A DNA stretch of 64,000 nt from Raillietiella orientalis (GCA_036172245.1 JAYWIR010000088.1:186001-250000); one strand, 5' to 3'. Shown: positions 24,201 through 61,989, counted from the first letter of the stretch. The notes: generated from the sequence alone by a model not told the origin. Numbers and translations are program-made.

Positions 24201-27066
24201 CGTCCAGCGGAGCACCCAGAAAACTCGGGCAGGCAAAGGTCTGTGGACGCGGCCACTGGCCAGTTCCACTCTGCACGGGTGTGAAAGTGCATCTTCATGA
24301 CTCCTGGGCACCGAAACCCTGCGCGGGTGGAAAATTCCGGAGCCTCCCGCGCGGGGCTTCGGATGCTGCTGCCTAGGAAACCGCTCGATTCGCCACCCCT
24401 TTAGATGCAGCCTCTCAGCAGTGCCCGAGGGAAGCGCGGGAAGCCGGAGCTTTCCGAGGTCGTCGGCCTCTTGAGTGCACAGTGAGTCTGTGGAAACAGA
24501 AAAGTGCGTGTGCAAGCTCTCTGCATCCGACCAGTCCGGGAGAAGAACAATATGGTAAGTCTGATTTTGTATGTTTGATAGAAAATGGTCAAATCTGGAA
24601 AGTACTAGTGGACTTTCATTACAGAAATACTTAATGCAAATATGTTGAAAGACGGTAGTGAATAAATGCTTCTCTTATAAATATTTCTAATCATAGTCAT
24701 GTAGCTCATGTCATGTTGTCTAGCAGTAGCGCAAAGTTGTTAAAAATGCCAAGCTGCTTATGTGTAGATTTTGTTATTAAAATTATTTCCATACTACGCT
24801 TATCATACTTGGTGAACTACGTTTCTTATGGTCTTCAGAAATCTAACTGTAAAGATTGCTTCAACTGGTAGAATATGAGATAGTGCTTTTATCCTTGAAT
24901 TATAAACTACAGCTTTCCAAGAATCTCCCCAAGATGCTCACATGGTAATTCAGTTGTAGCTCATATCGCAGATCCTATAGCTGACAATGTTGCGATGTGT
25001 TCCTTTTGATTTCAAAGCAGTTTCATTGTACTCCAAAACTTTTTTTACGTACAACTTTTGAAATACCCATTTCTGTAGAAATCAATGTACTTTGAAATGA
25101 AGTCATGATTAAGAATTGTACACTGTTTCTAAGAGCAGTGCTTCGGTGTTTCACTTTGGAGCCATATTTTAATTTGTGTGTTTATTAGTTTGTATGTTTA
25201 TGAGTTCATGGATCGTTAAAGTATCAGGTAATTGAGTTTGTCTGCAACTGCTGTACCTTGAAACTCAATAACCTGCTCAAGTACTACTGTACTTTTATGA
25301 AGTTTTATAATAAAGGCCTCAGGTGTGTGTAGCTAAAGGCTTTATCCTAGTTTATATTTATCATCATTTGTAGGAGTAGTAATTGTGAATCAATGTCCTC
25401 TATATAGTTTATGATGCTTGAAATTATCATCATATTTGGATACTGATTTTGTGAAGCTTCAGTTAAAATTGCAAACCTATAATTGTTTTTGTTGTTAATG
25501 CAAGAATAACATGAATGCAAATCAGTGCACAACTCAATATAGTGAATGGTAATGGGTGCTGACAACTTTTATTTTTTAAAACATGTGGCATATGGTGGAA
25601 ATTCCATCAAGCCCTGCTGCTACCACTCACTGGTCCATTGAGGCTACTTTGATTGCCGCAAGTAGTAATGGCACATTCTGTGTGGGGCCATTGTTTGTGC
25701 AGTTTCTTGTCAGTATGCTGCAAGTTTTCTAGATTGTGTCAAACAGATTCAGTCATGAGCTGTGTTTTATAGCATGAATCATTTACCAATATGAAGTAGC
25801 AATCTGCATTAGTTCATTTAATACCATTACTTATGTCTCCAACAGACTTCTACCAAATGCGTCACAAGAAATGCGAGTATGGCTTCTGTTTATCCAATTT
25901 GGTTTTTCAGTGTCCTGCTTTCGCCTCTTTCTCAGGGTTCGCACGAGTGGTATTAATTTGTATGTCTCCTAAGACTGATATTGCTCTTTTCTTCCAGTTT
26001 TGTGTAGCTGTTTGGCAGCCTTGCCTCAGTTCATTCCAGCATTGGTTTTAGGAAGCTAGTATCTGGTGTGTCATTGTCCAACAGAAGTAGCCAGTTTAAC
26101 ATATCTCCCTTACATGTTCAAAAGTTAATGCAGCCTCCCCAGATGTTGGAACTCTTTGTATATGAAATGGAATTGTGCACCCATATTGATCCACAAATGT
26201 GTGCTTGCTAGGGTTACTTGATTATTCGAGTGTTATCCTCAAGCAAATACTCATACATGCATTTGTGCACTCTTGCACTCCCATCTATGTGATGCTCTTG
26301 TATGTTGCCAAGATATGCCACACAGCCCCAGAAATGGCATTGAAGTTACTGCCAAAGATGTGCATGGTTGGGAGACCATCCCTGGCTTGTTCCTGTCTAC
26401 TCACAGTGTCAGACTATTCCATGGTCTGTGAGGTCCTCTGTACAGCCTGCAGTATTGTATTTTTGTAGTCACTTCCTTGGTAGTTCTCTACAACTTGGTC
26501 AAGAATTTGCTGACTGTGCACTCACTTTTAGATCCATACTTGATAGTGGGAATCGAATATACCTTCAGAAAATGTGCATCTTTGATGTTGGTTGTCATTT
26601 TTCTTGATTGTTCTCTCCTGGAGATAACATGGCATGATGGCAGTCGTTTCCAAAGCGTTCCAGGCTTTTGTCATACAGAATTCCTTGCTAGTATACTATA
26701 AGAGACACTATATTAAAATCTTGTGTACCACACTCCAGAAAAGCCCACCACACTCTGATGGTTTGTTTTTCACCAAACACTCTTCAATGATTCAGTGCAT
26801 TCCTCCGTGCCTGCGCAAACTGCATCGAGCAAAGTACCTGATTTTCTTTCGGCGTATATCCGGAGAACATTTCAGCTAGAGATGATCGCAAATAACTTGC
26901 AATGTTTGCCTCCGTCATGTGAGCGGATCGAGGTGTAGATTCCTATTTTATTTGCATATTATACACGTTAGAAAACAGTTACTATGGTTCCAGACTACAA
27001 GGCGGAAAATTTGACCTCATTCTTCTTTTCCGTATCATCTGCTTTTTATGTCCACTGCTGCTGTAC

Positions 27067-27985
27067 CTAGAATCGCGAGCTCCTGTAAGTGGAGTAGGGT
27101 CGCAGAGACTGTTGGAGTGGATGTCCAGGTCGATGGTTGTCCATCTGTTTCTGGAAGTCTGGCTCCCAGATGGCGAGAACTATGACATGTGGAGTGTCAT
27201 AGTACTTAATGGAGTCCTGATATTTTGGATCAAATATTATGCCATTTTTTAAGGATTCAATGTATCCGTATTGGGCGAGTTCCTTTGCATCTCTTGTAAG
27301 TGCAGCTGTGTATGTAAATTGCTTTTCTTGGTAGGAAAAGGAATTTTGCGAATGTGGTTTTTCCGTCGTTTCCTTTGGAGTCTTTAACCCAGTAGGTGTT
27401 TCCTGGATGTGGAGGCTTTCTGAGGATGCCAATGATGTCCATCTGCCATTGGTGTAGACGAAGTGATGCCATTGAGTTCGGTGCTGAGTCATTGCGGTAC
27501 ACAGGAAGCACAAGTTAATGTTTTTTCAATAAAACTTGGTGTAACCACACCAAGTTTGATGATGTATTTCTCAGTGTGCCCAGACCGAATAAGTTGGAGT
27601 ATCTAGAGGAAATGAAGTTTGAATGGTGTGGAGGTGTGTACCTTCTTTTCGTAGTTTTCTTCATTTGGGTTGTTATTGAGTGCTCCGAAGGCCCATGGAT
27701 GTTTGTCTTGCTTGGAACAGTAGAGCACGTTTGAGGAAGCGCATCTTTTTGCGTGTTCCAGGTGGCATGTTGTGAGTGGCGGACGTCGTTGTTGGATGAG
27801 AGTCCTACCTCTTTTTCTAGCTGTTACCTTCAGTATCTGAGTGAGAATTTCAGTTAGCAGCCACTCAGCGGTGTGGTATTCCTTGTCAGACTTACTTTGA
27901 CGATGATCGAAAACGCAAAGTTGATTATGTTTCAAGATTATTTTTCCTCTGACAATGGAACACCATGGTTTTCATTCTGCAGTGA
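27067..27985 (-). pseudogene. rep: Endogenous CRESS-DNA virus Rep remnant 1 (HUH endonuclease + SF3 helicase)
   Basis: Frameshifted motifs in order: PWCSI (motif I-like), QGIPHR* (motif II-like), CHLEHAK..NVLYCSKQDKHPWAFG (motif III), YWVKDSKGNDGKTTFAKFL (Walker A), YGYIESLKNGIIFDPKY, TPHVIVLAIWEPDF. Confidence 0.88.
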
Positions 27986-28936: not shown

Positions 28937-29530
28937 TCATCGATGTTCACACTGTATGAGTGGACGTTGTGGTAGACATGCTAGGATGATGAGTTGTGTT
29001 CCACCTGATGTGCTTGCGTTCATCGCAGAAGCATTGTTTGGGCTTTGTGAACACCGTACTGAATGGCCTTGCGTTCCACACTTGTTGCATTTTCCCGGAA
29101 GACACGCCGCCATTCTGTATAATGTACCTGCAGCGCCCGTAGAAGTCGGGAAATTTTTTTTTTTTACTCTGACGCGTTGCAATTGGCGTCTGATTTACCT
29201 GCCAATGTGCTCAGGTACAAAATCGCCTACTTTGTACTGGGGTGCGGGTTTGTGCCCATTTATGACGTTGGTCCGTAACTCCAGTGAGTGGCACCGCTCC
29301 TAATGCTGTCATCACGGTAACGAAGTCGCCGAAACTTTTCGCTGGTCGCGGGAATTGGAAGTGGAGGCAGTCTTGATTTCTGCCACAGAAATGGCGGGCA
29401 CGATGTCTTCAATAACCTCCATGTCAATTGGGGCGTTGCCGTTAAATAAACACGTACAGCACCCACAAGAATCACAACCTTTAAGCGGGGACGGTGAGCG
29501 TAGGAGAAACATGTCCCTCCGTTGAAGTTT
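28937..29530 (-). mobile_element. Retrotransposon 5'UTR and decayed ORF1 remnant
   Basis: GGACATG 5' motif at 29510-29516, MEVIEDIVP start similar to other ORF1s, and a CNKCGTQGH zinc knuckle. Confidence 0.65.
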
Positions 29531-31372
29531 TTTCACCCGGTCACGCCGAGGCGTTTATTGTGTAAACCAGTTCGGAACGCAGTTCCCAACTGAATATAAA
29601 AGAAGTTGAAGGGGATACTCCACCGGCACGGAGGTCGGGACAACCAAAAGTACTGAACGGGGGAGGGCAACGGGCACAACAGAAAAATAAATATGGTGGT
29701 AGCAATCCTCGAGTCCGCTCCTTTTGCACCAGGATTAGCAAGAAAACACATCGGGAAACTTACAGAGTGAACGGGAATAGGGTATGAGAAAAACGAATAA
29801 AAGGAGATACGGGACAAGCGTCACGGTATACGATATTCCTATTTTCAATCCGGCATTAGATGCCGGTAATGTTCAGAACTTGTAAGAGCTGACGGTACCT
29901 TAGAGAATTAATAAAGGCGGCCTCTATCGAAATGACCTCATCGCTGGCTGATGGTGTTGAGCACTTCACAGGCCATACCAATGTCACGGCTGAAACCCAT
30001 GGTTGCGAGGATTGCGCTCATCGAGTCTCCTTCCGGCGCGATGACCAGCCGTGGCACCTCTCCTGCGGTGTCCAGGTGCAGGAGTGCTGCTGCCAGGCTC
30101 CGCCACAGTACCTCGAGGGCACCCCAGTACAAAAGCGGATGTGGGATCCAATCTTCGTTCCCCACCCGGCACAGTCCGAGGATGACATCCCTAAGATAAT
30201 GCCGTTTAGCTGCTCCTTGAGCTGCAATCTCCAGTGGAAGACACGTTGCACGTCTTCTGATGCGTGCAAGCACTGAAGTGTTCACTCCAAGAGGAGAAAC
30301 CACAAGGTCTGCAGGGGTAACACTCAATAGTTCGCTTAATCGAAGGGGTGCTGTAGCCACAGCATGCGGAGTGGCAACATCCACCATCTAGCACGTATTT
30401 CAATGCAAGATAGTTTTTGTTATTCCTGCAATGGTGCAGGAAAACTCACTTCTGCGTTGGGCTACTCTCGTCTTTCTCCCTGAGGCCACACCGCTGCGTG
30501 AAGGGATGTGGCGGCCACAGTGGACCACTTCGCCGTGTCTTGCATCTCCACTTTCTGTGGTCATTGCAGCAGACTCTGAAGGGAGTGACGATCTTCAGTG
30601 CTGATTCCTTAGAATGCAGCTCAAGACTTAGTAGTCTCTTGCCGCCAAGCTTTCAAGTTTATTGGTTTGCAGAAGATACTTAGTTGGCTTTCTACTAGGG
30701 AGGCGACTTGCCTCATGGTGAAGCCGAATCGCCGCATCCTGTTGTGAGTGTCCGGCACCAGCTAGAAGGGTCCTTCGCTCTCGGCGCATCTCCGCAAGAT
30801 GACACGTAGAGGCGCACACTTCGGGGAAGTCTACAGCTTGCCACAGAGTGCCATCACTCGGAACTGCACTTGCTACTCGATTCCGATCCAGCGTCTGGAT
30901 GCCTAAGGCGGCATCTGGTAGCGCTGTCTCCAATTCTTTGAGACATCCTGGACCTCACAGGTACATTTAGAGCGTTCCTCAACTGGCGTTGATCCTGGAG
31001 CTTTGCCTCTCAAGAGGGCAGGCGAATTAGAAACGGAGCGTAGGAGGGACGGAACGAAGGTGTTCCAAACTGCCTCTCGTTCCGGCAGGTTTAACTTGTC
31101 ATGGAAGAACGGACCGGCAGAGAAGTCACCCTTCTGCAGTCTTTGCCCCGCAAGTCGGCGAGTGCTCCCCTGAGGAACTTTCAGCTTTTTTTTTTTTGCC
31201 GGACAAGTAACCGAGTTGCGTTTTCGTGGGTTTTGTGAAAATAAATGCCTTGAGGTAATGCAGTGAATAGCCTCTTGAAGGCAGTCCTACCGGGCTTCGG
31301 CAATACGCAAGATGCACAAAGGAACGCCAAGATGGATGAAATACTTGTCTGTCGCTATTTCCTGGAGGGTGC
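29531..31372 (-). mobile_element. L1/Tx1-like 3' portion (post-RT region, zinc finger, 3'UTR, 3' terminus)
   Basis: FIHLGVPL near 31330; ORF 29938..30387 C-terminal block; AATAAA-hairpin end at 29531-29559. Confidence 0.8.
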
Positions 31373-31374
31373 AG

Positions 31375-32410
31375 TTTTTCACCCGGGTGAGCCGGGGCTT
31401 CTATCATTAAAATTTTTCACAATACAATAAATTTCATAATAAAGTCTTGAGTTTTTCGTTTTTCTGCTTGTTTTTCAGTCGGGACATATCGCCGACTGTC
31501 TTGAGGCACTTGTCCTTACCGACCCGAAGGCCTATAAGGTCGTCCACACTGGCGAAGGAGCGGGAAAAACAAAAATAAAACAAAAAAAAAGAAAACGCCT
31601 GGGGGTAATGTTCTTCGGGAGGGGGAGGAAGGGAAGGGATCACGGCATGCCGTGAGGAGGCCTCTGCATCCGGTCACGGATGCGGACGAGTGCCTGTAAA
31701 TGCTTTCGAAGTCGGCGCCAACGGCAGGCCTTCTCTAAGGAGATGGCTGCCCAGTGGATGGCATTCCGACTGGTATGTCCTCTCCTTGACGCGGTCCACT
31801 TGTCCAGTATTCCGCGTATGCAACAGAGCACTGCTAGACATCCAAAAGCTGGCAAGGCGTCCCGCATCAGGAGTCGAAAGATGTTTTTCGAGTCGCCCCG
31901 CGGAATGTTCAAGATCGACGAGAGTCGGTCCCACATATCACGAAGGGCAACGCACTCTAGGATCAAGTGAGGGAAGGTCTCTCTTTCCTCACAGTCTGTA
32001 CAATTAGCATCCACACTCCCCGATGTCCAGTGAGACAAGCGCGCTCTGCTTAAAAGTCCCCAATGGAGCAGAAGCAACGCCGTCTCCTGCCACTGCAGGG
32101 GAAGGGTGCCGTTGTCCCAAGACGCCGGGGGCCACTTCACCTCCTCCGGAGGTAGTTCGAGCAGCGCGCCCCAGCCTAAAAGTCCATTCGGCGGGACACT
32201 CGGGGTACTAGCGTCCGCTAGTTCCCTGGACGTCCACGCCTTGAATAATTTTTTCCTGCCTCCGATGAGGCAGGACACTTCCCACGATGCCTCCTGCTGG
32301 CTGTCCCGAACTTCCCTGAGGGAGGGCAGCACTGTGGCAAGGGGGGTGAAGGAGGCCCACAGAAGCTTCCGTGGGTTGCGGACGATCTCCTGCAGTGGCT
32401 GACCAGCGTG
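31375..32410 (-). mobile_element. 5'-truncated L1/Tx1-like copy (ORF2 C-terminus and 3' end)
   Basis: ORF 31640..32332 has GLLGWGALL..LLLLHWG..CTDCEERETFPHLILEC. Terminal hairpin CCCGGCTCACCCGGGTGAAAAA. Confidence 0.88.
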
Positions 32411-32806
32411 ACTGCCTCTACGGAGGCAGTTGTACCTCTTTTCGCAGGACTATCAAACTAATGTTTATCTCAAAGGGATGAAGAATAGCAGGGAAAGCGT
32501 CTTGCATAATCCCAGACGCTTCTCATGTTTGGATCTGTTCTCGTCTGAGTTCAACGACTCCATCCAAGCATATTCACCGTGTTTGCCTGGGGCACGTTGT
32601 TCAACTAAGTTGGGACGCAGCGCTTGTGGAAGATCCCAATCTGTTATGTTTGGGTCGTTCGATCTGATCTTCTATAGTGACTAAGAACCTTGAATGCAGC
32701 AAGATCCGGTGACGGGTACGATTCGTAGTGGACATGGTTCGGTGCCCCTTGCACTCCACCATGTGATGTCTCTTGGGGCATTACGGAGTGATTCCACTCA
32801 ACGAGT

Positions 32807-33505
32807 TTGCCACTCTGGTCAATCACATCTCCTAAACCTCATAGGATTGGTTCGTGGATGTTTGGTTATATTGAGGATTATGAATCTGTAAATGAATTGT
32901 TGAAGAGTTTGAATTTGGAACAATACGCGCGTTATTATCGTTACGTGAAGATAAAAGGATGTGCTACGAAGGTGGAGCCATTGTCTCTGGGTTTAACGAT
33001 AGGCAACATGGCGGAAGAGTTTGGAATGAAAGTGTCGTATAGGAATACGATTTTGTATCAGGGCATTGCGCATGGAGAGCATTTTGGAGGGATGGCAGGT
33101 CACCATTACAGTACAGTGGTGAATCGTATTAGTGCTCATGAGAAAACGTCTGGTTGTTTTGCGCGTTAATTTGTGGTGATGGGTGTGCGAGTTTACTCGG
33201 AGGCTTACTTGGTGAAGAAGGTGAATGTGGATGGCGTGGTGTTAGATAGATATTGGAAGTGCCCTTGGATTGATTGTGCACGAGGAAGTGGTTTGGATCC
33301 TGAAACGAATGCAAATGTTGGTTTTTCTTTTATGCATATAATGAAGCATATGTCTGGTGTGGAAATTCCAGATGGATTGGAAGTAGGATGCCAGGGTGGT
33401 GTTTGTCCTAAAAACGGTCAAATGCAGAAGGGTTATCAGATTTATAAAATAACGAGAAAGTATTATGTATTGTTCAAACATCTGAGAGATGTTGGGCTAT
33501 ACTGA
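32807..33505 (+). pseudogene. Endogenous CRESS-DNA virus capsid-like gene (one internal stop at 33167-33169)
   Basis: ORFs 32807..33169 and 33173..33505 are in the same frame. Capsid-like motifs QYARYYRYVKIKGCATKVEP, YWKCPWID and C-terminal YKITRKYYVLFKHLR. Convergent with the adjacent Rep. Confidence 0.7.
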
Positions 33506-34370
33506 ATGTACACATAAATAAAGAGTGAAAATGTTTAATTGGTCTACTTCGTCATATGATGTGGAGAGTGGTGATAAGGTGGAGATGGAGGAAGAAGCAG
33601 GCGAGTCAGGGGCTTCTTCTGGATTAGAACTTGAAGAAGAAGGCCATGGGAGAATGCATATTTCCTCGGAGATCTGCCAGGGAAGTTTTTGCTTTATGTG
33701 TTGAAAGCAATCTTGTGAACGATCCATAGATCAGTAGATAATTTTGCAAAGTCGGGTTGCCAGTCCGCAAAGACGATGATGTGGGGTGGCTGGAAATATT
33801 TTAGACTTCCTTGGTATTTGGAATAAAAAATGATTCCATTTTTTAAAGATTCCATGAAGCTGTATTGCATGTGCCCATGTTATCTTTGGTGAAGTCCACC
33901 ACAATGATGCGTTCTCCGTTGTACAGGTGGGCTGCATTAGCCTTTCTGCAGGAGTGCATGTATATGGCATCTTTTTTTTAAAATAAAAACTTGGCCATCG
34001 TGGTCTTTCCAGTGTTGCCACAGGTATCGTAATACCAGTGGATTTTTCGAGAGCTGGGTGTTCGTCGGATGATGTCCAAGATATCCATCTGCCATTGTTT
34101 TAGTTGAAGGTTTGTTATGGGGTTTGGATGTTGTCTGCTCCTGAAGAGTCGGAAGCATTCTTAAATGAAGTTTATATTTTTGGAGTAAAATTGTGTGTGG
34201 TTTTTCAGGATGTAAAGTTTGTCTGCTCCGTTTTCAATAAGTTCTAGTATCTGGAAGTAGGCGTCCACCGCATATGTAGCTTCCGCTGGTGGTCTTGTTG
34301 ATGCTGGTTGCCTAATGGCATTCTTGGCTGGGAACACCATTTCAAATTTGCTCGCCTGAGCTTCAACCAT
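33497..34370 (-). pseudogene. rep: Endogenous CRESS-DNA virus Rep remnant 2 (SF3 helicase half)
   Basis: RKIHWYYDTCGNTGKTTMAKFLF, IIVVDFTK (Walker B), YSFMESLKNGIIFYSKYQG, PPHIIVFADWQPDFAKLSTDLW; contains stops and frameshifts. Confidence 0.9.
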
Positions 34371-34459
34371 ATATGTTTAAACAAAGTTTAAAAATGGGAA
34401 TCAGCCACCTGTGCAAACAGTTTCTTGCTCCTATTCATGCTCACGCGAGCTCTCCGACA

Positions 34460-35650
34460 AATCAACTACAGGCTGGTCGCTGGGGTTGCGTTTGGTATAA
34501 GGAGTAGCTGGTCGTCCACATTGTCCTCCACGTTCGGTGTGGCTGCATAGGATCTTCGCAGGTAGTCCTGTGCGCTTTAAGTAGGAACTCGAAGAATATG
34601 CTGAAGAGCTGTGGACTTAATAGAACTGTCTGCCTGATAGCCATGAGTATGGGAATACAGTACACGTGGCAGCCGCTTAAAGTAATGCAGGCTAGTGCAT
34701 GGAGCCAGCAGGAGCGCAGGTGGAGTAAGAGTTCCGTTGGGTTACGAAGGCGTTCCAAGAACTCCAAAAGCAGCTGCTGATTGAGGTCGAACGCCTTATG
34801 TAGATCCTACACTTTGATACTACACTTGTGTAGATCGACCGCGACCTCCAAGGCACCCGGCACTCCCTCCTGCCGTCGGCACCTGTTCTTTCCTGCTGCT
34901 GCAACTTTTGCTGCTGCCCGGCTTTGCTGCTCTACGCGCTCCTGCAGCCGCATCCAGGTGTGTTCGAATGGAAAGTTCGCATGCACTGACCGCATGGGGA
35001 CATTGAAAGTCAGGTCAGGTCAAGTGATCTTTTCTAGCTGCACAGCCCATGGCTTGAGAACTTGACGTCCGGGTCCATGAGAGGGATCGGACACCAGTTG
35101 TTTATGTGGCGCAAATGCACCTTCGCTGGGTGGAAGAAGATCGTACTTTCTGCCGTCTGTGGGTTGGCTGTCGTCGTCAGGGTCGATTTTTAACCGGGAG
35201 CACTGGGACGTAGATTGAAATGAATGTAAATTGGAATTTGAAAAAGGTCTTCTCAACATGGTAGGCATGGTGTACCGGACCGCAGCCATTCCGCTGTGAA
35301 TGGACGGAAAATCCTTGAGGGTGCTCTGAAGCCTCCACAGCTCGTGGATCGTGGCAAATTTAGCCTGCTCGTTCCTTATGTCGTAGTCGGAGATTTCCGA
35401 CTTCATGTCGAAAGTCTCCATCACGAAGGAGTCGTACATGGCTGCAGGTAACCTTGCCTCGGATAGACAGTGGGCTGCGCAGCAAGTGGTGCAGAAGATC
35501 CGCGTCCTAGCAGCGCACCTTGAAATAGACCTTGTTCTTAACTGGCATGATGACGAGTTCTTCGTTCCGAATGCCTATGCGGTTTAGTAGATCACTGAAC
35601 TGATCCCGGTCGCTACCGGAAAGAAACTCACCTGGTAACCGAGTGCGCGC
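34460..35650 (-). mobile_element. Decayed RT (34460-34960) and ORF1 (35250-35650) fragments
   Basis: AIRQTVLLSPQLFSIFFE and DLHKAFD (RT). SEISDYDIRNEQAKFATIHELWR..KDFPSIHSG matches ORF1 at 62111. Confidence 0.75.
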
Positions 35651-35727
35651 TTGTAGTCATGGGCTACGTTCTCCCGAAACCCAGCTTTGTCGGGGGGTTC
35701 CCCACTATTAGCTGCTGCTGTGGAAAC

Positions 35728-35855
35728 GTTGCAAAAATTTCGGAGAAATGTTTGCAAAATTTTGCAACATACAAAAGTGAGTGAGTGTAAGTTGCAAAAA
35801 ATTTTTGCAACTTACACTTCCGTCTTCCTCGCCGACGGCGAGGAAGACGGAAGTG
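35728..35855. repeat. Cluster of perfect palindromes
   Basis: TTGCAAAATTTTGCAA (35752-35767); 17-bp arms 35784-35800/35802-35818; 20-bp arms 35815-35834/35836-35855. Confidence 0.95.
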
Positions 35856-35859
35856 AAGG

Positions 35860-37115: not shown

Positions 37116-37151
37116 GAGTGTACAGTTTAAAGGAACAAGAAATGTGTATTA

Positions 37152-45830: not shown

Positions 45831-45845
45831 TGAAATTTTTTGAAA

Positions 45846-47490: not shown

Positions 47491-47493
47491 GTT

Positions 47494-48110
47494 ATCACCC
47501 GGGTACGCCCGGAGCGTTTATTCAAAAACTCTACAAGAAAACGTGGTTTAAGACCCTACTAACGGCCACACAACATTGTACCTGCCGGGACGCCGGGACG
47601 CAGCCTGGCGGGACGATCCGCGGTAGTGGAGAAGGATGGGGAACAAAACAAAAAGAAAAATAAAAGAAATAAAGAAAAACAAAAAGTTTGGAGGGAAGGG
47701 AAGGGATTACGGTCCACTGGGAGGAGGTCCCATCCTTAGCAGGATGCCATCGAGGTCCATCCGGATTTCAACCAGCTGGGGCCATCCTGCAGCTCTTCTC
47801 AAGGAACGAGAAGCATACGGGATGACGTCCCTCTCGTAATGGCCATCTTTTTCGTCACGCATTTCGCTCCAAGCCGCCACGATTCCTCGGATGCAGCATA
47901 GGGCTGCGAGGGTAGCGGCAGGCTCCAGGGCGTCTTGCACGAAGAGTAGCCGAAGAACGTCTCTGGGGTTGCTGCCCACTGAGAGCCCGAGAGTCATCCC
48001 GAACCGTTCCCATAGGGGTTGGAGGGCAGGTGTGAGAAGCCATTCCCGCTCCCCACACCTGGCACACTCAGTCCTCACACTCCCCCGCACCAGGGGAGTG
48101 TAAGGCCTGA
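47494..48110 (-). mobile_element. 3' fragment of an L1/Tx1-like copy
   Basis: CARCGERE..ALCCIRGIV; terminus AATAAACGCTCCGGGCGTACCCGGGTG at 47496-47522. Confidence 0.88.
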
Positions 48111-51100: not shown

Positions 51101-53690
51101 TCCCCTGGCGGATGCCACTCCCTGGATTTCGGTCCCTTGTCGCGAGGCCGCATCTCCAAAATTAGCCGGGAATGCTCCGACAGCGTCGACGCAATGTTGC
51201 CCCGTTTGCCGACCAGTGAACACAGGTCAGTGTCGAGGAAGACGTGGATGATGCTGCGGACCATTCTTCTCTCACCCGCGAACAGGTTGCGCGCACGCAT
51301 GGCGGCGCACAACTCGTTCATCGCGTTCTCTTGTGTTTCAGGCTCACCAGTTTGCAGTCGAAGATTGATATCTCCGGCTATGAACTGAGCCTTTCGTACG
51401 TTCGTGTCCGCCAGACAGTCGCGTTTCATGGATTCAAGCAACCTGGTACGGTTGCTGTGTCCCTTTTGTCGGCATGGGGCGTACACATTCGTGACGATCA
51501 GATCAATTGAGTCGGACCAGCCGAGAATCAGCTGAGCGACCCGACCGACGTAATCGAAGCGCACGCGTTTGACGGCAGCGTCGATGGCTGGCTTGACGAA
51601 GAACGCGACCCCGCAGGTGTTGCGGAGACCGCATTGCCGGTACATCCCCGCGATCGACTTGATCTCCTGGATGTCTGCCGCGGAGATCACGTGGATCTCC
51701 TGCAGCCGGGCAGCTCACGCAGGGTGTCGGCCGTATCTCGCCTGTTACCTTCGTCGCGCAGCCCGTTGACATTCCAACAGGCCGCGCGTATCCGACGGAG
51801 ACAGGCGAGCCCAGGTGTTAATCCTGGGAAAGTGGCTGTGAGGCATCCGTCACCTGCTGGGGCGGGACGCTAGGTGGAGGAAGAGGGTCAGGTGGTGAAG
51901 GCACCTGGTCTGCCTCCATGGGTAACGGCGCGCAGAGCAGGTCAACCACAGGTGGGGTCGCGCCTACCTGTTGGCCCTCCTCCATGGGCGGTGGCTGTTG
52001 ATGGTCGGCGACTGCAGGGGGGACTTCGCCCCCGTGCTTACCCTCCTCCATGGGGGTGGCCTGCTCGACGGCTTCCGAGCGTGGGAATTCCTTCTCCGGG
52101 GTACCCACGCTGGCGACGGCTTCCGTCTTCTCGATGGTGGAGGGGAGGCGCCTCTTGGTCTTCTGGGACTTGCGTTCCGACTTCCTGGGGGTGCCTCCGC
52201 GTAGGAGGATGTACTTTCGGGCTCTAGGTCTAACTCACTTGTGGGGCCTTCTTCGCAGGAGCCGGCCTTCGCAGGGCCTTGCGCGAGGGGTTCTCACGCT
52301 CGGCCAGCGTGACCGCGAGCTCCTCCGCCGCCTGCGCGAACGCGGCGTGCCGGCCTTCGACAGCCGCTATGTCGCGCGGCTCACCCTCTGTGTAAACAGA
52401 GGGTTCGCCTTCGCGTACCTCGGGCGCGGCGGGAACGGCTAGGGGAGGCTCGTCGCCCCGAGTGGCAGCCTCGGGAACGACGATGCGTTCCAGTGCCACC
52501 GTGCACTCGCGGAGAGTTTTCGATCGGTAACCGGGTTTTTTCGGCTTCGCGTTCTTCTCTGCTTTCACGTCTTGCTGGTGGGGAAGATTTGTTTCTTTGG
52601 GGCATTTACAACCTGCCAGCCCTCTTTTCCTTCCACTACTTGGAAAGGCCTATCCTCCGGATGTTGCGCCGGAGGTTGAGGTGCTGGCAGCTTCTGCCGG
52701 CCACTTTCAACTTTAGGTCTTGCGACCTAGTTTGCCTTTTTCACCGGCTCCTTTGTGGCGGCAGGTGGCAACAGGGTGGTACGCTTGGGGCACACGCCCC
52801 GAACGTGGCCCTGCTTCCCGCACAAGTGGCACTGTATATTCGGGTACCTTTTTCGGAGGTGTCCTACTGTATTACAGTATCCGCAGTAGCGGGGTTTCCC
52901 TACGAACCAGAGGTCTACCGGCTTTGGCAGACGTCCAGCTTGTGAGGTAGCGCTCTTCCCTCGTTCGCAGTTACACGTGCGGCGGCCTGCCCCCCGAAAA
53001 GGCTATTGTAGCCGCCGAAGATAGTGGCCTTTGGCAACAGCGTGTGTGCCTCACCGAACTTCTTAAGTTACTTACCAATCGCAGACCGCGTCATGCGGCT
53101 GGTGATGCCAGTAAGATGGACCACTGCGGAGCGGTCCATCGTGACTGGCAGGATCTTGCGCCCATCCATGATCAGCGGGGTGGTGATCAGACTTTGCACC
53201 AAGCTAATGTGCTTACAGACAACCTCGACGCGCTGACCCCCGCTAAGCACGGTGAGGCCGTCAAGATCCTTCTCCAGAGTATTGGCGTTCTGCAGCGCCT
53301 TCGTAAAGGCGCGTGCAGTTCGTAAAGGCCCATCAAAAAGGTTGCCTACCTGATAGACTAAGCTGGGCTTGTACCCAGCTGCCCGGTAGGCAGCCATCTC
53401 GGTCATGGCCTCCGCGCTGGGCGCGGCCACTATGGCGCTCCAGCTCCTTGCCTTGGGCGTCGAGGGCGATTTCGGGGCGGAAGCCCCTGAATCTGTAAGC
53501 TGTAGGGGTTGACAGGCGTCCCCCACACCTACCTCCATCGTGGTGTCCTCAGGCAAGGTTGCCATCGGACATCAACGATGTTCCACATTAAATAACCACT
53601 GATAAACCGCCTTACTTTCGACTCTCTCGGAAGCGAAGGAAAAACACGTCCTTCCCACCTTCCTTGGAAGGGGCCGGGTGCAACTAGGCA
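48110..53690 (-). mobile_element. Near full-length L1/Tx1-like non-LTR retrotransposon (ORF1 ~51800-53565; ORF2 APE-RT-zinc finger ~48265-51770), frameshifted
   Basis: APE: GVAFFV, NVYAP, AGDIN, LSEH. RT: KAPGEDGLPAEFF, WRPITIVNTDAK, EQTYAVPGRS, GIRQGDRLSPLLF, YADD, YLGVPLG. Then GGL and the C-terminal zinc finger. ORF1 has RSWSAIV..GYKPSL and CCHC knuckles. GGACGTG at 53645-53651. Confidence 0.95.
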
Positions 53691-54965
53691 GCGAGCTCCT
53701 CCACCGGTCGCTCGAAGGCTAAGTCATCGTTGATGGCCTCGGGGACGGACGCTGCCACCGTCTCGCTCGCCTCACTGTTGACATTGTCAGCAGAGGATTG
53801 CTCGTAGGTTGCGGCGAGTTCTTTGCAGCGTTCGACAACGTCGGGAACGCGCTCCACGACGACGCTACATTCTTTAATAATCTCGCTACCCTTCTGCTTT
53901 TTCTTGCGTTAAGCGACTTTTTTCTCGAGTTGACGTTCTTTTTCGACTTGCTGCCTCTTGCCACCTGCCACACAGGCTCCTGACCGTTTCCCTCGACCTG
54001 ATCGACGTTGTTCGCTGGGGACTGGGGTGCGGCCTGGGCCTTGGGCTCGGGTGGCAGAGCTTCCGCCACTAGCCTATTTTGAAGTACCTTGGCGCGTTTT
54101 CTCGCGTTCCTTGAGGACACAACGCGCACAGATGCCTGTGGGCACACCTACCGCGTGTGGCCCGTATTCCCGCACTCATTCCACTGCATGTTGGAGCACC
54201 TCTTCTTGAGGTGTCCCGACGTATTACAGAAGTCACGGTATTTGGGCTTCCCCACATACCATAGTTCGACGGTTTCGCCACCGACCACCAGTTTGTGGGG
54301 AGGAGTACAGCCCTCTTGGACGGTCATGCGTGAAGCCGTAAGGCCGCATTGCAGTTCGGTATATTCAGCAAAAAAACCAAGATTGGATCACAATGCATGA
54401 ACCGTCCCGTATCGCTGCAGTGCGGCGCGTAAGGACTCCCGACCCATCCGCGGTCACACCTAACAACTGGACCACCATACTTTGATCCACCGCAATGGGA
54501 AGGAGCCTGCGTGTTCTCATCACCACGGGTGTTTTAAGCAGACGGTGGGCAAGATCTGCCTGGTTGCAGATTACCTCAACGTACTACCCCCTGCTGAGGA
54601 TGGTCATAAAGATCTCTTCTTCCTGCACTTAAGGGCGCGCATCCACTTCGAGAATTGGCGCGCGCTCTCAACAGAATGGAGATGGCCTACCTTGTTGAGT
54701 AATTAGGGGTGATACCCCTTTTCCACCTAAGCAGTCAATTACGCCGCGGCTGCAGGTTTGGGGCTTCCACGACGGCGATCCACTTCCGCGTTGCAGCGGG
54801 GACCGATTTTGTCGTGGCGGATGTCCTCACCTCCATCGCCACTGGTGGTCATGTCATGCATCACTGCCTGATCAACCACCGAACCACAGAAAACTTCGCT
54901 ATAAGGTGAGGGTTGTCAGCACCGAGGAGCAACAAGAAAATGCGTCCATCGCGCAGAAGCAAGGC
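53690..54965 (-). mobile_element. 5'UTR and decayed ORF1 (likely 5' part of the copy continuing at 47490)
   Basis: LWYVGKPKYRDFCNTSGHLKKRC and CRECGNTGHTR knuckles; ends at LAFERPVEELAA. Confidence 0.8.
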
Positions 54966-54971
54966 GTTCCA

Positions 54972-57900
54972 TTTTCACCCGGATTTCGCCGAAGTGTTTA
55001 TTGAGAAATGAACTTTTACAAGGACGTGCAGTGGCTAGACCAATGTTCCAGCCACGCACGAAGTAAAAGCTTGCAGGGTCAAAGGTTGTCAGACTGGTAC
55101 GGAGCAAAACAACAGCAGGGGAAAGGGGAAAAACAAAAAAACTAAACAAAAAAAGTTGGTGGATACGGGAAGGGATCACTGTTGCTGCTGGGGCCGTTGA
55201 ATCCTTTTCAAGATGCCGGCAAGCTTTTGTATTCGCGCATACAGGTGGGATCATCGCGACGCCCTCCCCAGGAATTGGGCGGCGCCCTGGACGAAAACAT
55301 CCTTATTGCGTGGTGCTCCCGTACCTTGCTCCATGGGGCGACGATCCTGCGGATGCAGCACAGGGCTGCTGACGAGGCCGCATGCGGAAGGACGTCCGCA
55401 ACGAAGAAGACTTTCAATGCGTTCCTGGGGTGTCCGCAGGGGATTCCGATGGCTGCCACAAAGCGTAACCAAAGAGGCCGAGGGGCAACACAATCCACTA
55501 AGAGATGAAGGAGGGTTTTCCGTTCCCCACACCTAACACAGTTTGGATCGAGAGCTCCCCAAGTCCAGTAGTGCCGGCGGGAGTTGCAGGGGATTCCCCA
55601 ATGCAGTAACAAAAGAGCCCACTTCTCCCATTTTTAGGGGAGGGTGGAGTGTTCCATAGCACCTGTGGCCACTTCAGATGTTCAATGGGAACATCGAGCA
55701 GCCTGCCACAGCGCAGAAGTCCATTGGGAGGTGTACTCTGGGTCGCAGCGTCTGTTAACTGGCCCTTCTTCCACTCTCCCTACTTCTCCTTTCCCGAAAA
55801 CGTTGCTTTAACCTACCACTTCGCCGAAACATTGCTGTCCTGATCTTCCACATGGGAGGGCAGCACAGCAGCAAGGGGGTCCTTCCTGACCACCCTCGCT
55901 TGTTCGGATCCTCCAGGATCTCTCGGAGCGTAAAACTTCTGTAGCACCCAAACAGGAACCGTAATTGCTGTTGGGCGCATTGCATGCCGCACTGTGCCCA
56001 TGTGTGAACGGTTTCCTGGAACTAGGGCATACGGTTTGCGGGTCGACAGGTGATGCATCCTTGATTTTTCCGTGTCAGCGCAGCCACCCTCCGTAGCTGA
56101 AGTCCACATCTGTTGACACAGCGACGGAGTGCAAGAAAGTACGTGAGTCCCATCTTCCCGATGGCTTCCTTGACGAGGAGACGTGCAGTGACGCACCAGC
56201 AGGTGCATCACAACTCCTTCACAACAGCCAACATCCGAAACTGGAGCTGAAGCTCCAGCCGATCCAACGTCAGGATGCCTAGACCGCCATCCCGACGCAG
56301 AGCGTAGGAGCGCTTCAAGCTGACTCGGGTTCTCCGGTGGCTCCAAAGGGCGATACGGAGGAATATTTTCGTCTGTTTTTTGATCGTCTCTGTAGGGGAT
56401 CAAACAAAAGCCAGGGAACGGAGGATAGGAGTCACGAACTTGTTCCAAACCGCGGCCCATTCCTGCGGGAAAAACCTGCCTCCTCGGAACGGGCCAATCG
56501 CCGTCTACTTTTTGCTGGCAGTCGGACCACGCTTCCGCAGGGGAGTAGTACCCAACGGCACACCAAGGTACTTGATGTACCCGCCCGTGGGGATCCTTAA
56601 ACGGATCCTTTCCGACCGTCCTGCCCGCGAAGTGTCCGTATGTAGCAACGACGACTTCGCTCTGTTTACCAAGGGGCCTGTACCACGGCACAGCAACTCG
56701 AAGAAATCCTTGAGTGCCGATGTCGGGGTGGACCCGGGAAGCAGAAGCAGGTCTTCGGCATAGGCCAACACGGCAGGCGTGCCTGCACAGGAGCTCGGCA
56801 GGGTTGCCAAAGTCTCCCTGTAAGCTCTCAGCACCCACTCAAAGAAGATGCTGAAGAGCAAGGGGCTGAGCCTGTTACCCTGCCGGATGCCGCGACGAAC
56901 CGGCACGCCGTACACGTGTCGGCCGCTGAAATTAATGTTGATGTATGCGAAGCGCTATCAGGAGCGCTGTTAGGCGAGGAAGACGGCCGGAAATGCCAAG
57001 CGTTCCAGGAGCTCCAGGAGGAGCTCCTGGTCGACACAGTCGAAAGCTTTACGCAAATCGACTGGGACCGCAAGGGCTCCGGCCGCCGCATCTCCCCTCA
57101 GGCTTCCCTCCCCCCGGTCAGTAGACAGTCCAGGACTCTTCCGACCTAGCTGAGCCTCGCGTTGTTGCAACTGCCAAAAGGTGCTGGTGGGGAATAGGTT
57201 GGCTTCCATGTTTCGTCCGGGAACAGCGTGTGTCTGTTCCTGACTGACCACGGATTCCGCTACCCGTCCCAGTCGCTTAGCCCAGAGCTTGGCGAGCAAC
57301 TTTGCGTCCGCATTCACTACAGTGATGGTACACCAGTTGCCAACTTTGCGCAAGTCTCCTCCTTAGGAGAGGAGACGTACTCTAGCTGACCGGAACGAGT
57401 TGGGGACATCACCACGTTCACGGATCATCATACATAATTTGAGAACCAGGGGGGTGATCTCTGCCGTAAGCATTGATAAAATTCGGCTTGCTGGCCGTCT
57501 TCATCTGTTGCTCTAGGTTTTAATTTTGCGATGGCGGAGACAATCTCCGCCATCGTGAATTATTGATGTAAGGTGTGACGTTCGTCCTCCCGTAGCGCGG
57601 GCGCACCTTCTGGCAGCAGATGCTGCTGAAGGGAACGCTCTGGATTTTTTCTCGCGTATAGGGAGTGGTAAAAATCTTTCAAAAGGCGGCAAACCTGCGC
57701 TGGAGTTGAGCTCGCCTGGCCTTGTTCTTCCAGTAAGCAGGCAGACTTGTATTGCCAGGCCTGCCTCAGCTCCAGCCTTGTACTCCGCCAGGCGACGGAC
57801 GTCTAGCTTGTTGGTGAAATGACGTTCCCGGAGATAGTTCTTGTCGTTCCTCACGTCTTCGCCATGTTGCCCCGGTAATGGGAATCGCGTGTTCGCCGCC

Positions 57901-59690
57901 TTCCGAGCGTGGAAGTTCCCCATCTTGGGTTGTCCCGTTGTCGTCGACTTCTCCGGCTTCTACTGTTTCTTCCTCTCTAGACGGCGATATGCATTTCCTC
58001 GGTTTCTGGAACTTGCGTCCCGTCTCCCGTGAGGGTGCGTCCGCGGAGGAAGGTGAGCTTCCGTCCTCCCGGTCGGACTAAGCTGGGGAGGCCTTTTTTA
58101 CCGGAGCCGGCCTTCTCACGACCATGCGTGAGGAGTTCTCTCGCTCGGCCAGCGTGTTCGCCAGCTCTTCCGCCGCTTTTACGAATGCGTCATCCTCGCT
58201 GTCGGTGGGCGCGTCGCGCGACTCACATTCTGTTGAAACACAGGGTTCGTGCTCGCGAACGACGCTGGCCCGTATAAACAATTGGAGGGGGATTGTACCC
58301 GGGTGCTGTTTGCAGGCATGTCTAGGCGCTCGAATGCAACTGAGCACTTACGAAGAGTCTCGGTACGCGGCTTTTTCTTTGTGTTTGCGCCGTTCGCGAC
58401 TGTCTCCGTTTTCTTCTCGATTTCCTCCTTTTTATCTTTTTTGGCTTTTACGAGCTGCCATTCCTCTTCTACCTCTATGACTTCGGGGAGCTTGTTCTCC
58501 GATGTCGGACTGAGAAAAAAATTAACCACAGAATTAACATACTCATACCATCAAACATTTCCTACTTTTGAAACCTAGACTACATAATAGGAATCTTTCT
58601 AATTACCCAACTATTTACAGGCATTATCATCTCCATACATTACATCCCCATACCTCAGAAGCCTTTTCATCAATCAAGATAATGTACAACACCAATAACG
58701 GATGATTCGGGCCATTGGGGCGTTAGTTGCTGCACGCGGCTATTTTCCCATTCTCTTTTAGTTTCCCCGCGCGTTCCTCCTGCGCCTTTTTGCCTGCCGG
58801 AGGAATGGGGTTGGGGTGTTTTGGGCACACAAGCTGGACGTGTCCCTTCTCCCCGCGCAGGTGGCACTCGATTTTGGGGCATTCCTTACGGAGATGCCCT
58901 ACTGCATCGCAGTAGCCCCAGTACCCGGGCTTCCCCACGTACCAGAGGTCCACCGACTCGCTGGCGAGCTCAACTTTTTGGGGCAGCGTACTTTCCTCTT
59001 CAACCGTGACAAGCGCCCGGCCATACTTCCGAAGAGGCTTCCATAGCTTTCGAAAATTGTTGGCTTAGGCCACAATTTTCGAGTGCGTCACCGAACTTAG
59101 TAAGTTCGTCTTGACCGAAGAGCGCGTCATGCGGTTTGCAATACCGGTGAGATGGACCACGACGGACCAGTCCATCGACACCGGGAAGATAATACGTCCG
59201 TCCACGATCAAGGGGGTATTGATCAAGCGCTGGGCCCAGCTGAGGACGGATTGGCCATCAGGATCTTCACGTGCATTCATTTTTGGCAACGCTCTCCTGA
59301 AGGAGCGTGCCGCCTTCCCGTCTAACAAGGGACCTACCCTCTATACAAGTGAAGCTTTGTATCCTGATTCCCTGCAAGCGGCTTGCTCAGCCAATGATTC
59401 CGCGCTCAGCGCGTCACCATGGCGCCATGGTCACCATGGCGTCAACATGGCGTCATGGTCACCATGGCGCTCCAGCTCCTTGCCGGTGGCGGGGATGTTC
59501 CAGTGGAGATGCCTCCATCTCTAGGTTGCGCAGGTGGACAATCCTCCCCTACACCTACCTCCATCGCGGTGTTCTGAGGCTTCGCTGCCATTGGATACCG
59601 ACGATGTCCACACAAACACAAACACTAATAAAGCTTCCTGCCTTGCTCGCTAGCTCAGTGCAGGAGAAACACGTCCGCTGAAGCGGCGTG
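54972..59690 (-). mobile_element. Long decayed L1/Tx1-like copy (5'UTR, ORF1 interrupted by a NUMT, endonuclease deleted, RT, zinc finger, 3' end)
   Basis: GGACGTG at 59670-59676, ATG at 59591, CGYC-like and CHLR knuckles, DLRKAFDCV, GIRQGNRLSPLLF, YAED, YLGVPLG, CVRCGERKTLLHLLVDC; terminus at 54972-55002. Confidence 0.9.
58515..58708 (+). pseudogene. cob: NUMT: mitochondrial cytochrome b N-terminal fragment
   Basis: In invertebrate mitochondrial code: LMPSNISYFWNLDYMMGIFLITQLFTGIIISMHYIP / HTSEAFSSIKMMYNTNNGWF (TGA=W twice, one frameshift). This matches the cytb pattern PSNISYWWNFGSLLG..QILTG..MHY..AFSS..N.GW. AT-rich and G-poor relative to flanks. Confidence 0.88.
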
Positions 59691-59696
59691 TAGGTT

Positions 59697-61000
59697 GTCA
59701 CCCGGCTACGCCGGGCCGTTTATTTAAACTTTACAAAAAACGCGGTGTGAAATAAGGGGAGTGTTACCCACCTGCTCCCCCTGCATTGGGGTTGCCAGTT
59801 GTGCGTTGTCGAAGAGAGTGAGTTTCTCACCCTCGATTCTCACGCTGCGGTCTTCCCCTTTGGATTCCGGTTCATCGTTCTCTTGGCTAGACGGGGTGAG
59901 CCTCCAAATATTCGTGGACTTGCGTCCCGTCTTGTTTGGAGGCTCCTCCGCTGAGGAGGACGAACTTCAAGCATCCCGATCGGGGTCACCTGCCTCAGTT
60001 CTCATGGATGCGGGCGGCCTTCTCAATTTCTTTCGTGCCAAGTTCTCACAGCCGACGAGTTCGGCCGAGAGATCTTCCGTCGCCTGTTCTATGGCGGCGT
60101 CCTCGAGGGCGTCGAGCGGCTCCCCCTCTACGCAGACGGTTCGCCTGCGACCGTCACGGCATCGGCGTAGACGAAGGGGGGATCGCTCTTCCGGTGGAGG
60201 CATGGAGTGCCTCCATATGCTTCAAGGCCATCGAGCATCTGCGGAATTTTTCGCGGCGCAGTTTTTTGTGCGGGGCGTTTTTCTACTTTTTCGGATTTCC
60301 TCGGGCCTTCACCAATTGTAACCCTCGCTCTCACCAGCTTTGTCGGTACATTTTTCCGTCGCGGACCGCGTTTGCTTGCTGGGTTGAGGATCCTCATTTT
60401 GTGTCGGCCCTTTTTTCATAAAACTACCAGTACTGGTAGCTTTTGCAGTTTTCTGGCGCATGTATCTTGCGCTTCAGACAGAGCTGCGGGTACCGGGTTT
60501 TCCGTTTGGGGTATGCGCTTCCCATCTGACCTTTTTTCTTACAAACGAAGCATGCGATGTTCGGGCACCGTTTCTTCAGGTGTCGCGGAACATCGCAGTG
60601 CCCGCAGTATATGGGTTTCTCCAAGTACCAGACATCCACGGACTCGTTTTCGAACTGGATCTTGTGGGGAAGCCCTTTATTTTCCGTAAGTGTGATGTTC
60701 GCAGCTGCCAGCCCGCTGAAGAGCCCACCGTACCCTTCAAGAACGTTCGACTTGGCCCATAACGCCGCGTTATGGGCCAAGTCGAACATAACGTGTTCGG
60801 TGCCCAATTCCAGCAATTTCTCATGCACTGCCTTTTTTCCATTGGACAGTTGATGCCCTTTAGGTGCAACAACCTCGATTGATCTTGTGAAGAGAAGACC
60901 TTGAGAACGTTGAGTACGATGGGGATCCTTAACAAACGCCGAGCCAGACTTGCTTCTTTGCAAGTGAGCTCGATGCACTGATCCTCACTCAGCACTTTTT
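59697..61000 (-). mobile_element. ORF1-only derivative with intact family 3' terminus
   Basis: CGHCDVPRHLKKRCPNIACFVCKKKGQMG, EDLSAELVG, PMQGEQVGNTP, then within ~40 nt AATAAACGGCCCGGCGTAGCCGGGTG. Confidence 0.8.
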
Positions 61001-61960: not shown

Positions 61961-61989
61961 CGCCCTGCGGAGATCCGTTCGATCTCTTG

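Follow-up and report, generated by a model that had tools for sequence, protein, structure and literature searches.

We analysed a 64,000-nt stretch of the genome of Raillietiella orientalis (GCA_036172245.1 JAYWIR010000088.1:186001-250000), hereafter called the window; all coordinates are window positions. We favour, with a probability of roughly 0.6, the view that a single clade of long interspersed nuclear elements (LINEs) of the APE (apurinic endonuclease) type forms a head-to-tail array between 29.5 and 61.24 kb, assembled by the elements' own integration machinery, and that the pronounced strand bias of this region is a by-product of such a mode of growth. An earlier reading made from the sequence alone (the sequence-only reading) had proposed that this region is a flamenco-like trap of transposon and virus sequence, and had named oriented self-targeting as the alternative. 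It is the latter that fits better, as the termini of successive units abut, although the two readings are not mutually exclusive.

Successive units abut at their termini

Alignment of the 3' regions of the units revealed a common 3' untranslated region (UTR), consisting of a T-rich stretch, AATAAAC, a short stem (CCCGG...CCGGG) and GTGAAAAA. When as many as 3 mismatches were allowed, the 17-mer AATAAACGTCCCGGCGT matched at 6 places in the window (0.07 expected). Every one of these is on the minus strand, as are all 7 matches of a composite 3' motif. Two further degenerate 3' ends, at 35.9 and 55.0 kb, were recovered from the 3'-region alignments together with the scan. There are thus nine 3' termini (29.54, 31.39, 35.88, 38.44, 40.59, 45.86, 47.51, 55.00 and 59.71 kb), and 9/9 are in the minus orientation.

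The 5' motif was found by aligning the sequence that comes after the 3' ends with the 5' regions of the near-complete element A and of a plus-strand unit, both described below. On the minus strand this 5'-terminal motif, GGACGTGTTTYTCC, has close matches (0-1 mismatch) at 29516, 53651 and 59676 and degenerate forms at 54947 and 45809; the plus-strand match at 61233 has 2 mismatches. Weight is given only to matches with at most 2 mismatches, of which 0.9 are expected per shuffle. The motif is part of the 5' UTR, since element A and the plus-strand unit possess it although no 3' end precedes it there. In four units the start of open reading frame 1 (ORF1), ATGGAGGT, lies 94-113 nt downstream of the motif.

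At four strong junctions, located at 29.5, 59.7, 55.0 and 45.8 kb, the 3' terminus of one unit and the 5' motif of the next are separated by 12, 17, 23 and 36 nt, respectively. Three further junctions, at 47.5, 31.4 and 35.9 kb, have weaker 5' motifs at gaps of 18, 25 and 32 nt and are probably also joined 3' to 5'. For nine 3' ends and eight 5' ends within 34 kb, the number of abutments expected by chance is ~0.04, and the probability of four or more is ~1e-7. Joins of this kind, with gaps of 12-36 nt, are a sufficient mechanical reason for the strand bias, and the abutting termini are stronger evidence than the run of orientations itself. The junction fillers vary in sequence and in length, and some are palindromic. 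The only candidate for a copied target site between units is a loose TTCAAC-like word after the A-run. The filler and leader at 35784-35861 contain two inverted repeats, one with 26-nt arms that are 92% complementary and one with 17-nt arms (100%), and shorter palindromes are found at other 5' termini. The units delimited by these termini, together with the parts recognised within them, are as follows (RT, reverse transcriptase).

29503-61236, minus: whole array, at least 11 head-to-tail units, all from a single APE-type LINE clade, over ~32 kb
29415-29516, minus: 5' terminus of the leftmost unit, with the motif GGACATGTTTCTCC at 29503-29516 and the ORF1 ATG at 29422; the body leftward is unrecognisable
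29529-31374, minus: unit E2, RT end plus C-terminal part; 3' terminus at 29529-29559 (AATAAAC, stem and GGGTGAAAAA)
31375-35859, minus: unit E, with a palindromic 5' leader, an ORF1 piece (35245-35605) and an RT piece (34469-35182)
31375-32449, minus: downstream part of unit E, after the virus relic Rep1 and the Cap candidate; ORF2 C-terminal region at 31519-32449 (zf-RVT), 3' terminus at 31375-31404
35860-38427, minus: unit H36, with the virus relic Rep2, a LINE piece (36928-37126), an inverted piece and a LINE 3' UTR; terminus at 35860-35889
38428-40579, minus: unit H38, with an ORF2 C-terminal piece (38516-38941); 3' terminus at 38434-38458
40580-45845, minus: unit D, with the 5' motif GGACGTGAATTC at 45798-45809 and ORF1 at 44889-45808; 3' terminus at 40580-40605
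45846-47490, minus: unit F1, internally deleted, RT end plus C-terminal part at 46009-47226; 3' terminus at 45846-45876
47491-54970, minus: composite of unit f4, then element A, then a second 3' part
54947 down to ~54136, minus: unit f4, a 5' fragment; 5' motif at 54936-54947, ORF1 from its ATG at 54836 to ~54136
48131-53665, minus: element A, near-complete, with the 5' motif at 53638-53651, ORF1, endonuclease (51016-51714), RT (49616-50894) and C-terminal ORF (48278-49528)
47578-48028, minus: second 3' part after element A, with its 3' terminus at 47491-47522
54971-59693, minus: unit B, with a complete 5' terminus (59663-59676) and ATG at 59564; 3' terminus at 54971-55002
59694-61236, minus: unit G, with an RT piece (61051-61236), an ORF1 piece (60463-60995) and a further piece (59776-60182); 3' terminus at 59694-59724

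The units differ in their internal deletions. Unit B, for example, is without ~1.1 kb that matches the endonuclease part of element A. Element A itself does not have the usual 3' terminus: its T-rich 3' UTR is followed by ~150-200 bp of unrelated sequence with hairpin-like repeats (48030-48135). The 4.3-kb interior of unit D (40620-44888) matched no Pfam family and showed no self-similarity within the window, and its 350-aa frame had no match in a protein atlas search; this interior may be foreign sequence that was captured or an ORF2 that was lost.

Orientation of the LINE sequence

The orientation of the array was determined by three separate annotations, which agreed. In tblastn searches with 150 outside LINE proteins, 5/5 intervals within 27-61 kb were on the minus strand, and a sixth minus interval was found at the right-hand end of the array. 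Both orientations occurred outside it.

30627-31139, 34307-35019, 46678-47199, 48986-50882 and 55902-57787, minus: tblastn LINE intervals within 27-61 kb
61085-61231, minus: sixth tblastn LINE interval
5464-5790, plus; 63474-63785, plus; 9759-10319, minus: tblastn LINE intervals outside 27-61 kb

A tblastx comparison with the window's own elements assigned 11,971 bp of 27001-61000 to the minus strand and 427 bp to the plus strand. The greater part of the latter, 310 bp (50237-50399 and 57165-57311), was an artefact caused by a minus-strand piece inside a plus-oriented query, and the truly plus sequence was confined to 36790-36906, i.e. 117 bp versus 11,971 bp. Comparison of the LINE ORFs with all six-frame pieces of 27001-61240 by phmmer, run with default filters, yielded 61 minus and 2 plus pieces. 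One of these two is genuine (36703-36900, E value 1.7e-11), and the other (52951-53322) is weak (E 0.006) and overlaps a minus-strand ORF. The sole genuine plus-strand LINE piece within the array is therefore the following.

36703-36906, plus: inverted fragment of the ORF2 C-terminal region (phmmer 36703-36900, tblastx 36790-36906)

These results bear out the statement of the sequence-only reading that nearly all ORF1, ORF2 and Rep fragments, including both Rep relics, are on the minus strand, as well as its report of an inverted piece of about 200 bp at 36.7 kb. A plus-strand transcript would, as it had also pointed out, be antisense to nearly all of them, and this geometry holds from 29.5 to 61.2 kb. 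The limits that had been given, 27 and 61 kb, required revision on the left, where neither tblastx nor phmmer detected LINE homology from 27.0 to 29.4 kb; the true limits are ~29.5 and 61.24 kb. The two-sided probability that ~11 units share one orientation by chance is ~0.001, but the limits of the region were set post hoc.

Orientation reverses at 61.24 kb

The right limit drawn in the sequence-only reading is the meeting point of two arrays. Between 61241 and 64000, phmmer identified 8 plus and 2 minus LINE pieces, and the following features were recognised there.

61233-64000, plus: opposite array of the same clade, with the 5' motif at 61233-61246 and ORF1 pieces; it continues to the window end
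62004-62017, plus: possible second 5' motif (three mismatches)
62105-63499, plus: gag-like ORF (465 aa, CCHC)
63160 to beyond the window end, plus: ORF2 C-terminal part

The reversal is sharp, the 5' motif of the plus unit (61233) lying directly against the minus-strand RT piece at 61051-61236, which is 80% identical to element A. Just upstream of this 5' motif there is a 9-nt inverted repeat (61196-61204 and 61222-61230). As the same clade is arranged one way in both orientations, the bias belongs to each array and not to the whole locus.

Identity of the LINE family

The array members belong to one LINE clade, in which ORF1 is gag-like and carries a CCHC knuckle and ORF2 comprises an endonuclease, RT and a C-terminal part. 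The window has 454 stop-to-stop ORFs with a length of 70 aa or more. Pfam was scanned with 450 of these, i.e. all but the last four (63.1-64.0 kb), and with the six read-through frames of 39-44 kb. Matches among the 450 ORFs were few, and those to the LINEs were as follows.

49616-50119 (E 3.3e-11), 50163-50894, 56508-56954 and 56973-57362, minus: ORFs with RVT_1
31643-32449, minus: zf-RVT
52730-53002, minus: C2H2 finger
58726-59064, minus, and 62105-63499, plus: zf-CCHC

Integrase, RNase H, transposase and other domains of long terminal repeat (LTR) or DNA transposons were absent from the 450 ORFs, and domains of LTR type were also absent from the six read-through frames, which matched no Pfam family.

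The best ORF2 was read through from 48278 to 50119 (minus) with its two stops entered as X, to give the protein P0001. Among 1.84 billion representative proteins, P0001 had 586 relatives at E values up to 1e-3, of which a single one, P0010, was close (61% identity). The nearest solved RT was that of Bombyx R2 (E 1.9e-8), human L1 ORF2p reaching only 0.08-0.19, and the zinc knuckles of ORF1 matched nucleocapsid knuckles in the PDB. An endonuclease of the apurinic type was identified at 51016-51714 (minus, E 9.3e-9) with a profile based on the N-terminal parts of 46 full-length relatives; it had no match in Pfam itself and was found in this custom profile only. Since element A possesses ORF1, endonuclease, RT and the C-terminal part, it is a LINE of the ordinary APE type, from a clade that is poorly sampled. 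With one relative at 61% among the representative proteins, the family is, as judged from this search, almost unsampled. No other copy of the family was found outside the window among metagenome contigs, and a search with a degenerate pattern of the 3' terminus returned 6 loci, about the number expected by chance, 0 of them with LINE homology.

Divergence and composition of the units

Differences between the units were counted at first, second and third codon positions. In RT, elements A and B differed by 0.24/0.15/0.36 and 0.32/0.15/0.40, and ORF1 of unit D differed from that of the plus-strand copy by 0.25/0.19/0.46. This excess at third positions indicates that the lineages were still coding when they diverged: they separated as active subfamilies, not through the decay of copies duplicated in place. 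The many diverged subfamilies that the sequence-only reading had seen are thus supported by the codon-position differences. The C-terminal regions showed no third-position excess (A versus B 0.30/0.22/0.30; A versus the plus-strand copy 0.39/0.25/0.25). For unit B versus the plus-strand copy the C-terminal values were 0.20/0.19/0.14, at 80% identity, and we read these two parts as putative copies of one subfamily that are decaying neutrally.

Tandem duplication in place was considered as the origin of the units and was rejected in view of the third-position excess and the differing fillers. Different fillers between subfamilies that diverged under purifying selection indicate that the junctions were formed independently.

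The array as a whole has a GC content of ~50-59%, versus 36-44% in the flanks. The left units have 44-52% GC and an observed/expected (o/e) CpG ratio of 0.72-0.87, and the right units 53-59% and 0.91-1.07. The rise in GC and CpG from left to right weakly favours stepwise growth over a single event. The younger LINE units had a CpG o/e of 0.9-1.07, and the older ones, together with the flanks, 0.66-0.87; there was little sign of strong decay.

Virus and mitochondrial relics in the array

Two units contain relics of the replication-associated protein (Rep) of circular Rep-encoding single-stranded (CRESS) DNA viruses. They are listed here with a neighbouring plus-strand frame, the Cap candidate, and with a nuclear copy of mitochondrial DNA (NUMT).

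33621-34370, minus: Rep1 (P0002), relic of a CRESS-virus Rep helicase domain, in a single frame with 5 stops
37101-37799, minus: Rep2 (P0003), relic of a CRESS-virus Rep helicase domain, with 7 stops
32792-33505, plus: Cap candidate, a frame of 238 codons with a single stop inside it, converging with Rep1; identity unconfirmed
~58536-58664, plus: NUMT, N-terminal piece of cytochrome b inside unit B (PF00033, E 1.8e-5, genetic code 4)

Rep2, aligned with five Reps, retains Walker A (GNSGKT), Walker B (IIIMD) and motif C (IIMAN); Rep1 keeps Walker A and Walker B only. Five relatives of Rep2 were found at 35-41% identity, three of them with PF02407 (Viral_Rep), on contigs of 1.8-2.9 kb. In tblastn, Rep2 matched 53/53 Rep loci from IMG/VR and Rep1 52/53 (best E 2e-14). 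Both relics are truncated. Neither P0002 nor P0003 matched PF02407, the HUH nuclease domain, of which the alignment shows the tail at best, and a comparison of the Reps with the PDB gave no match. Rep1 and Rep2 are only 40% alike over 77 residues, so that they are not copies of a single integration. Each is situated inside a LINE unit and in the sense of the LINE, with LINE 5' parts upstream and 3' parts downstream, which agrees with the placement of the Rep fragments on the minus strand in the sequence-only reading. The agreement in sense, 2/2, has a chance of 1 in 4 and is a lead only.

The same reading had named a plus-strand Cap gene as an exception to the bias. The frame is real, lies on the plus strand and converges with Rep1; its identity as a capsid gene is unconfirmed. 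It is AT-rich like Rep1 (41.7% GC), and the two are laid out as in an ambisense circovirus genome. Against Pfam Circo_capsid it gave E 0.15 only, and it had no relatives in the PDB or in a word-indexed protein search. A tblastn search of the 53 Rep-bearing IMG/VR loci returned one high-scoring segment at E 0.34. The AlphaFold model made from the single sequence had a pLDDT of 31.4 and was unusable for fold comparison. The plus-strand NUMT, the other exception that had been named, was recovered as the cytochrome b piece.

There is a slim chance that RT jumping between RNAs twice copied transcripts, from two different CRESS-DNA viruses, and also mitochondrial RNA, into LINE units. If so, this would be a LINE-driven entry route for DNA-virus genes, which would arrive already aligned in a one-way array usable as an antisense template for small RNAs.

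A self-targeting array as the favoured explanation

In the explanation that we favour, new copies would be inserted at the termini of resident copies or next to them, and there are two ways in which this could come about. The endonuclease or the primer may favour a resident terminus as its site, or RT, on reaching the 5' end of one RNA, may jump to another RNA and resume at its 3' end or internally. Jumping between templates is a property of R2 RT in vitro. The two unrelated CRESS Rep relics, the possible Cap and the 130-bp mitochondrial piece would have been acquired during or after the growth of the array.

Several observations weigh against this explanation. Unit f4 and the first plus unit are 5' fragments that are followed by a new 5' terminus, and they call for a nested insertion with deletion or for an internal template switch. 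Unit D holds 4.3 kb without LINE homology. After two of the nine 3' termini (38.4 and 40.6 kb) no 5' terminus can be recognised, 3/7 junctions depend on degenerate 5' motifs, and the 14-mer 5' motif is not enriched when 3 mismatches are allowed (15 matches versus 11.6 expected). Neither a target-site duplication nor a common target sequence was definable at the units. No copy of the family was found outside the window in the contigs searched, and tail-to-head joining as a rule of the family is thus unsupported. The array may in addition be a source of small RNAs, which is not needed to account for the bias.

Alternative explanations

The least unlikely of the alternatives, which we nevertheless consider improbable, is a unistrand source resembling those of PIWI-interacting RNAs (piRNAs). 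Here a plus-strand precursor would span the array, selection would keep antisense insertions, and the locus would be an archive of LINE and virus sequence. Such a transcript would indeed be antisense to almost the whole of the LINE and Rep sequence of 29.5-61.2 kb, and two unrelated virus relics are oriented like the LINEs. Coverage by transposons on the same strand was a search criterion for flam-like loci, as described in PMC10643416, and core piRNA clusters of mosquitoes are described as enriched for antisense viral relics (bioRxiv 10.1101/2022.08.22.504762). Selection on orientation does not, however, predict that 3' and 5' termini abut within 12-36 nt. The cargo consists of one LINE clade, two Rep relics and a NUMT, with no LTR element, whereas the bias of flam-like loci is carried by Gypsy LTR elements in the description of PMC10643416. 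The orientation also flips at 61.24 kb. AATAAA occurs 23 times on the plus and 17 times on the minus strand of 27-61.24 kb, which shows no purging and has little force either way.

It is very unlikely, in our judgement, that two retrotransposon arrays from chromosome ends were fused head to head, or that the locus is a (sub)telomeric or centromeric LINE niche, with units added serially at an end. The head-to-tail arrangement with 3' ends joined to 5' ends would be expected from this, and Drosophila telomeric elements are described as becoming tandem by consecutive insertion (10.1101/158386). The 5' ends of both arrays face the flip at 61.24 kb, the GC content and CpG o/e suggest that older units lie far from it, and the 9-nt inverted repeat is found just upstream of the 5' motif of the plus unit. 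On the other hand, no telomere-type repeat occurs anywhere in the 64-kb window, and most units have a complete 5' terminus and not an eroded end. Element A, seemingly the youngest, lies internally, and 5' fragments without 3' parts do not suit simple terminal addition.

The possibility that a long plus-strand host transcription unit filtered the insertions, with sense LINEs in an intron or a read-through zone purged through their poly(A) and splice signals, is barely credible. A candidate exon does exist upstream on the plus strand, at 15911-16294, where Pfam Asp (aspartyl protease) scored 21.5 bits against a cut-off of 19.9. The match covers the C-terminal end of the profile (239-314 of 315), so that a gene at this place, if genuine, stops 13 kb short of the array. 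This ORF had no relatives among longer proteins, and no exon-like Pfam match flanks the array or lies inside it. Orientation filters of this kind, such as that acting on L1 in mammalian genes, give a moderate bias; the bias here is ~99%, and such filters do not make termini abut.

A chance run, inflated by the fragmentation of a few insertions of the same sense, is just as hard to credit: the limits of the region were drawn afterwards and exactly at the flip, and some pieces may be one copy (e.g. f4 and the second 3' part at 47.5-48.0 kb), but nine separate 3' termini represent nine separate events, the termini abut far above chance and the subfamilies differ.

Other features of the window

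The window is eukaryotic and rich in repeats, with GC contents ranging from 36 to 61%. It contains a single tandem array, of 28 bp in 2.1 copies with 93% matches, at 59411-59469, within the 5' region of ORF1 in unit B. No tRNA genes were found in the window, no Rfam family, including rRNA, matched it, and the short motif of a dinoflagellate spliced-leader relic did not match either. An inverted pair of ~220 bp with 72% identity is located ~15 kb apart at 6082-6286 and 21027-21242.

Remnants of the LINE clade of the array are present on the plus strand at 5209-8099; they comprise an RT piece (5.2-5.8 kb) and C-terminal pieces (7.5-8.1 kb), possibly of one old copy. A more distant RT fragment is found outside the array on the minus strand at 9759-10319, where RVT_1 matched weakly (9855-10322, minus). 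The aspartyl-protease ORF at 15911-16294 lies inside a stretch of ~59-61% GC at 12-17 kb and may be a host exon or a chance match.

Comparison with known systems and significance

The Zepp and Zepp-like clusters of green algae, as described in PMC8226300 and PMC3446292, provide a precedent for arrays of LINEs that insert into themselves. Zepp-like clusters are given there as 1.5-42.3 kb long, and Zepp as having 61% GC versus 53% in the genome (PMC3446292). In both cases one LINE family clusters over tens of kb (here ~32 kb), in or beside its own copies, with local peaks of GC. The likeness is drawn by description, and there is a difference, in that Zepp arrays are described as consisting mostly of the 3' ends of 5'-truncated copies, whereas most units here have retained a 5' terminus and are linked end to end. 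The HeT-A, TART and TAHRE elements of Drosophila are likewise described as one-way head-to-tail arrays of related non-LTR lineages with 3' joined to 5' (10.1101/158386, PMC5537684, PMC13534243). The present array differs from them in having no evidence of a chromosome end and no pattern of terminal erosion, and in belonging to another clade, its RT being nearest to that of Bombyx R2.

The R1 array of D. melanogaster, a tandem of non-LTR elements made by double insertion according to the account in 10.1101/158386, has head-to-tail or tail-to-internal junctions that arose by repeated insertion at the same site and were later broken up by deletions and further insertions. R1 tandems hold identical copies of a 33-nt target in ribosomal DNA; the fillers here, of 12-36 nt, vary, and there is no rRNA gene. 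With flamenco-like loci and mosquito piRNA clusters the array shares a long stretch in which transposon and virus sequence lies on one strand. The flam-like loci described in PMC10643416 have Gypsy-type LTR elements, a defined promoter and piRNAs from one strand, whereas this locus, known from its sequence, has a single LINE clade with abutting termini. The two relics resemble endogenous CRESS Reps in being helicase-domain frames with stops, 35-41% identical to Reps with PF02407 in the case of Rep2. They differ in that both are truncated, without a recognisable HUH domain, and each inside a LINE unit in the LINE sense.

On the favoured explanation, the locus is a self-targeting head-to-tail LINE array of a kind that is already known, from a clade that is almost unsampled. 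Strand bias among transposon and virus relics is often read as a hint of a unistrand piRNA source, and head-to-tail self-targeting by LINEs can give the same picture. Since the insertion mode of a LINE can mimic the bias of a piRNA cluster, the anatomy of the junctions should be checked before a locus is called a small-RNA trap. With its precise tail-to-head junctions and with Reps inside LINE units, the array offers a natural case for the growth of Zepp-like and telomeric clusters, and a usable one for how DNA-virus genes become fixed within clusters of LINEs.

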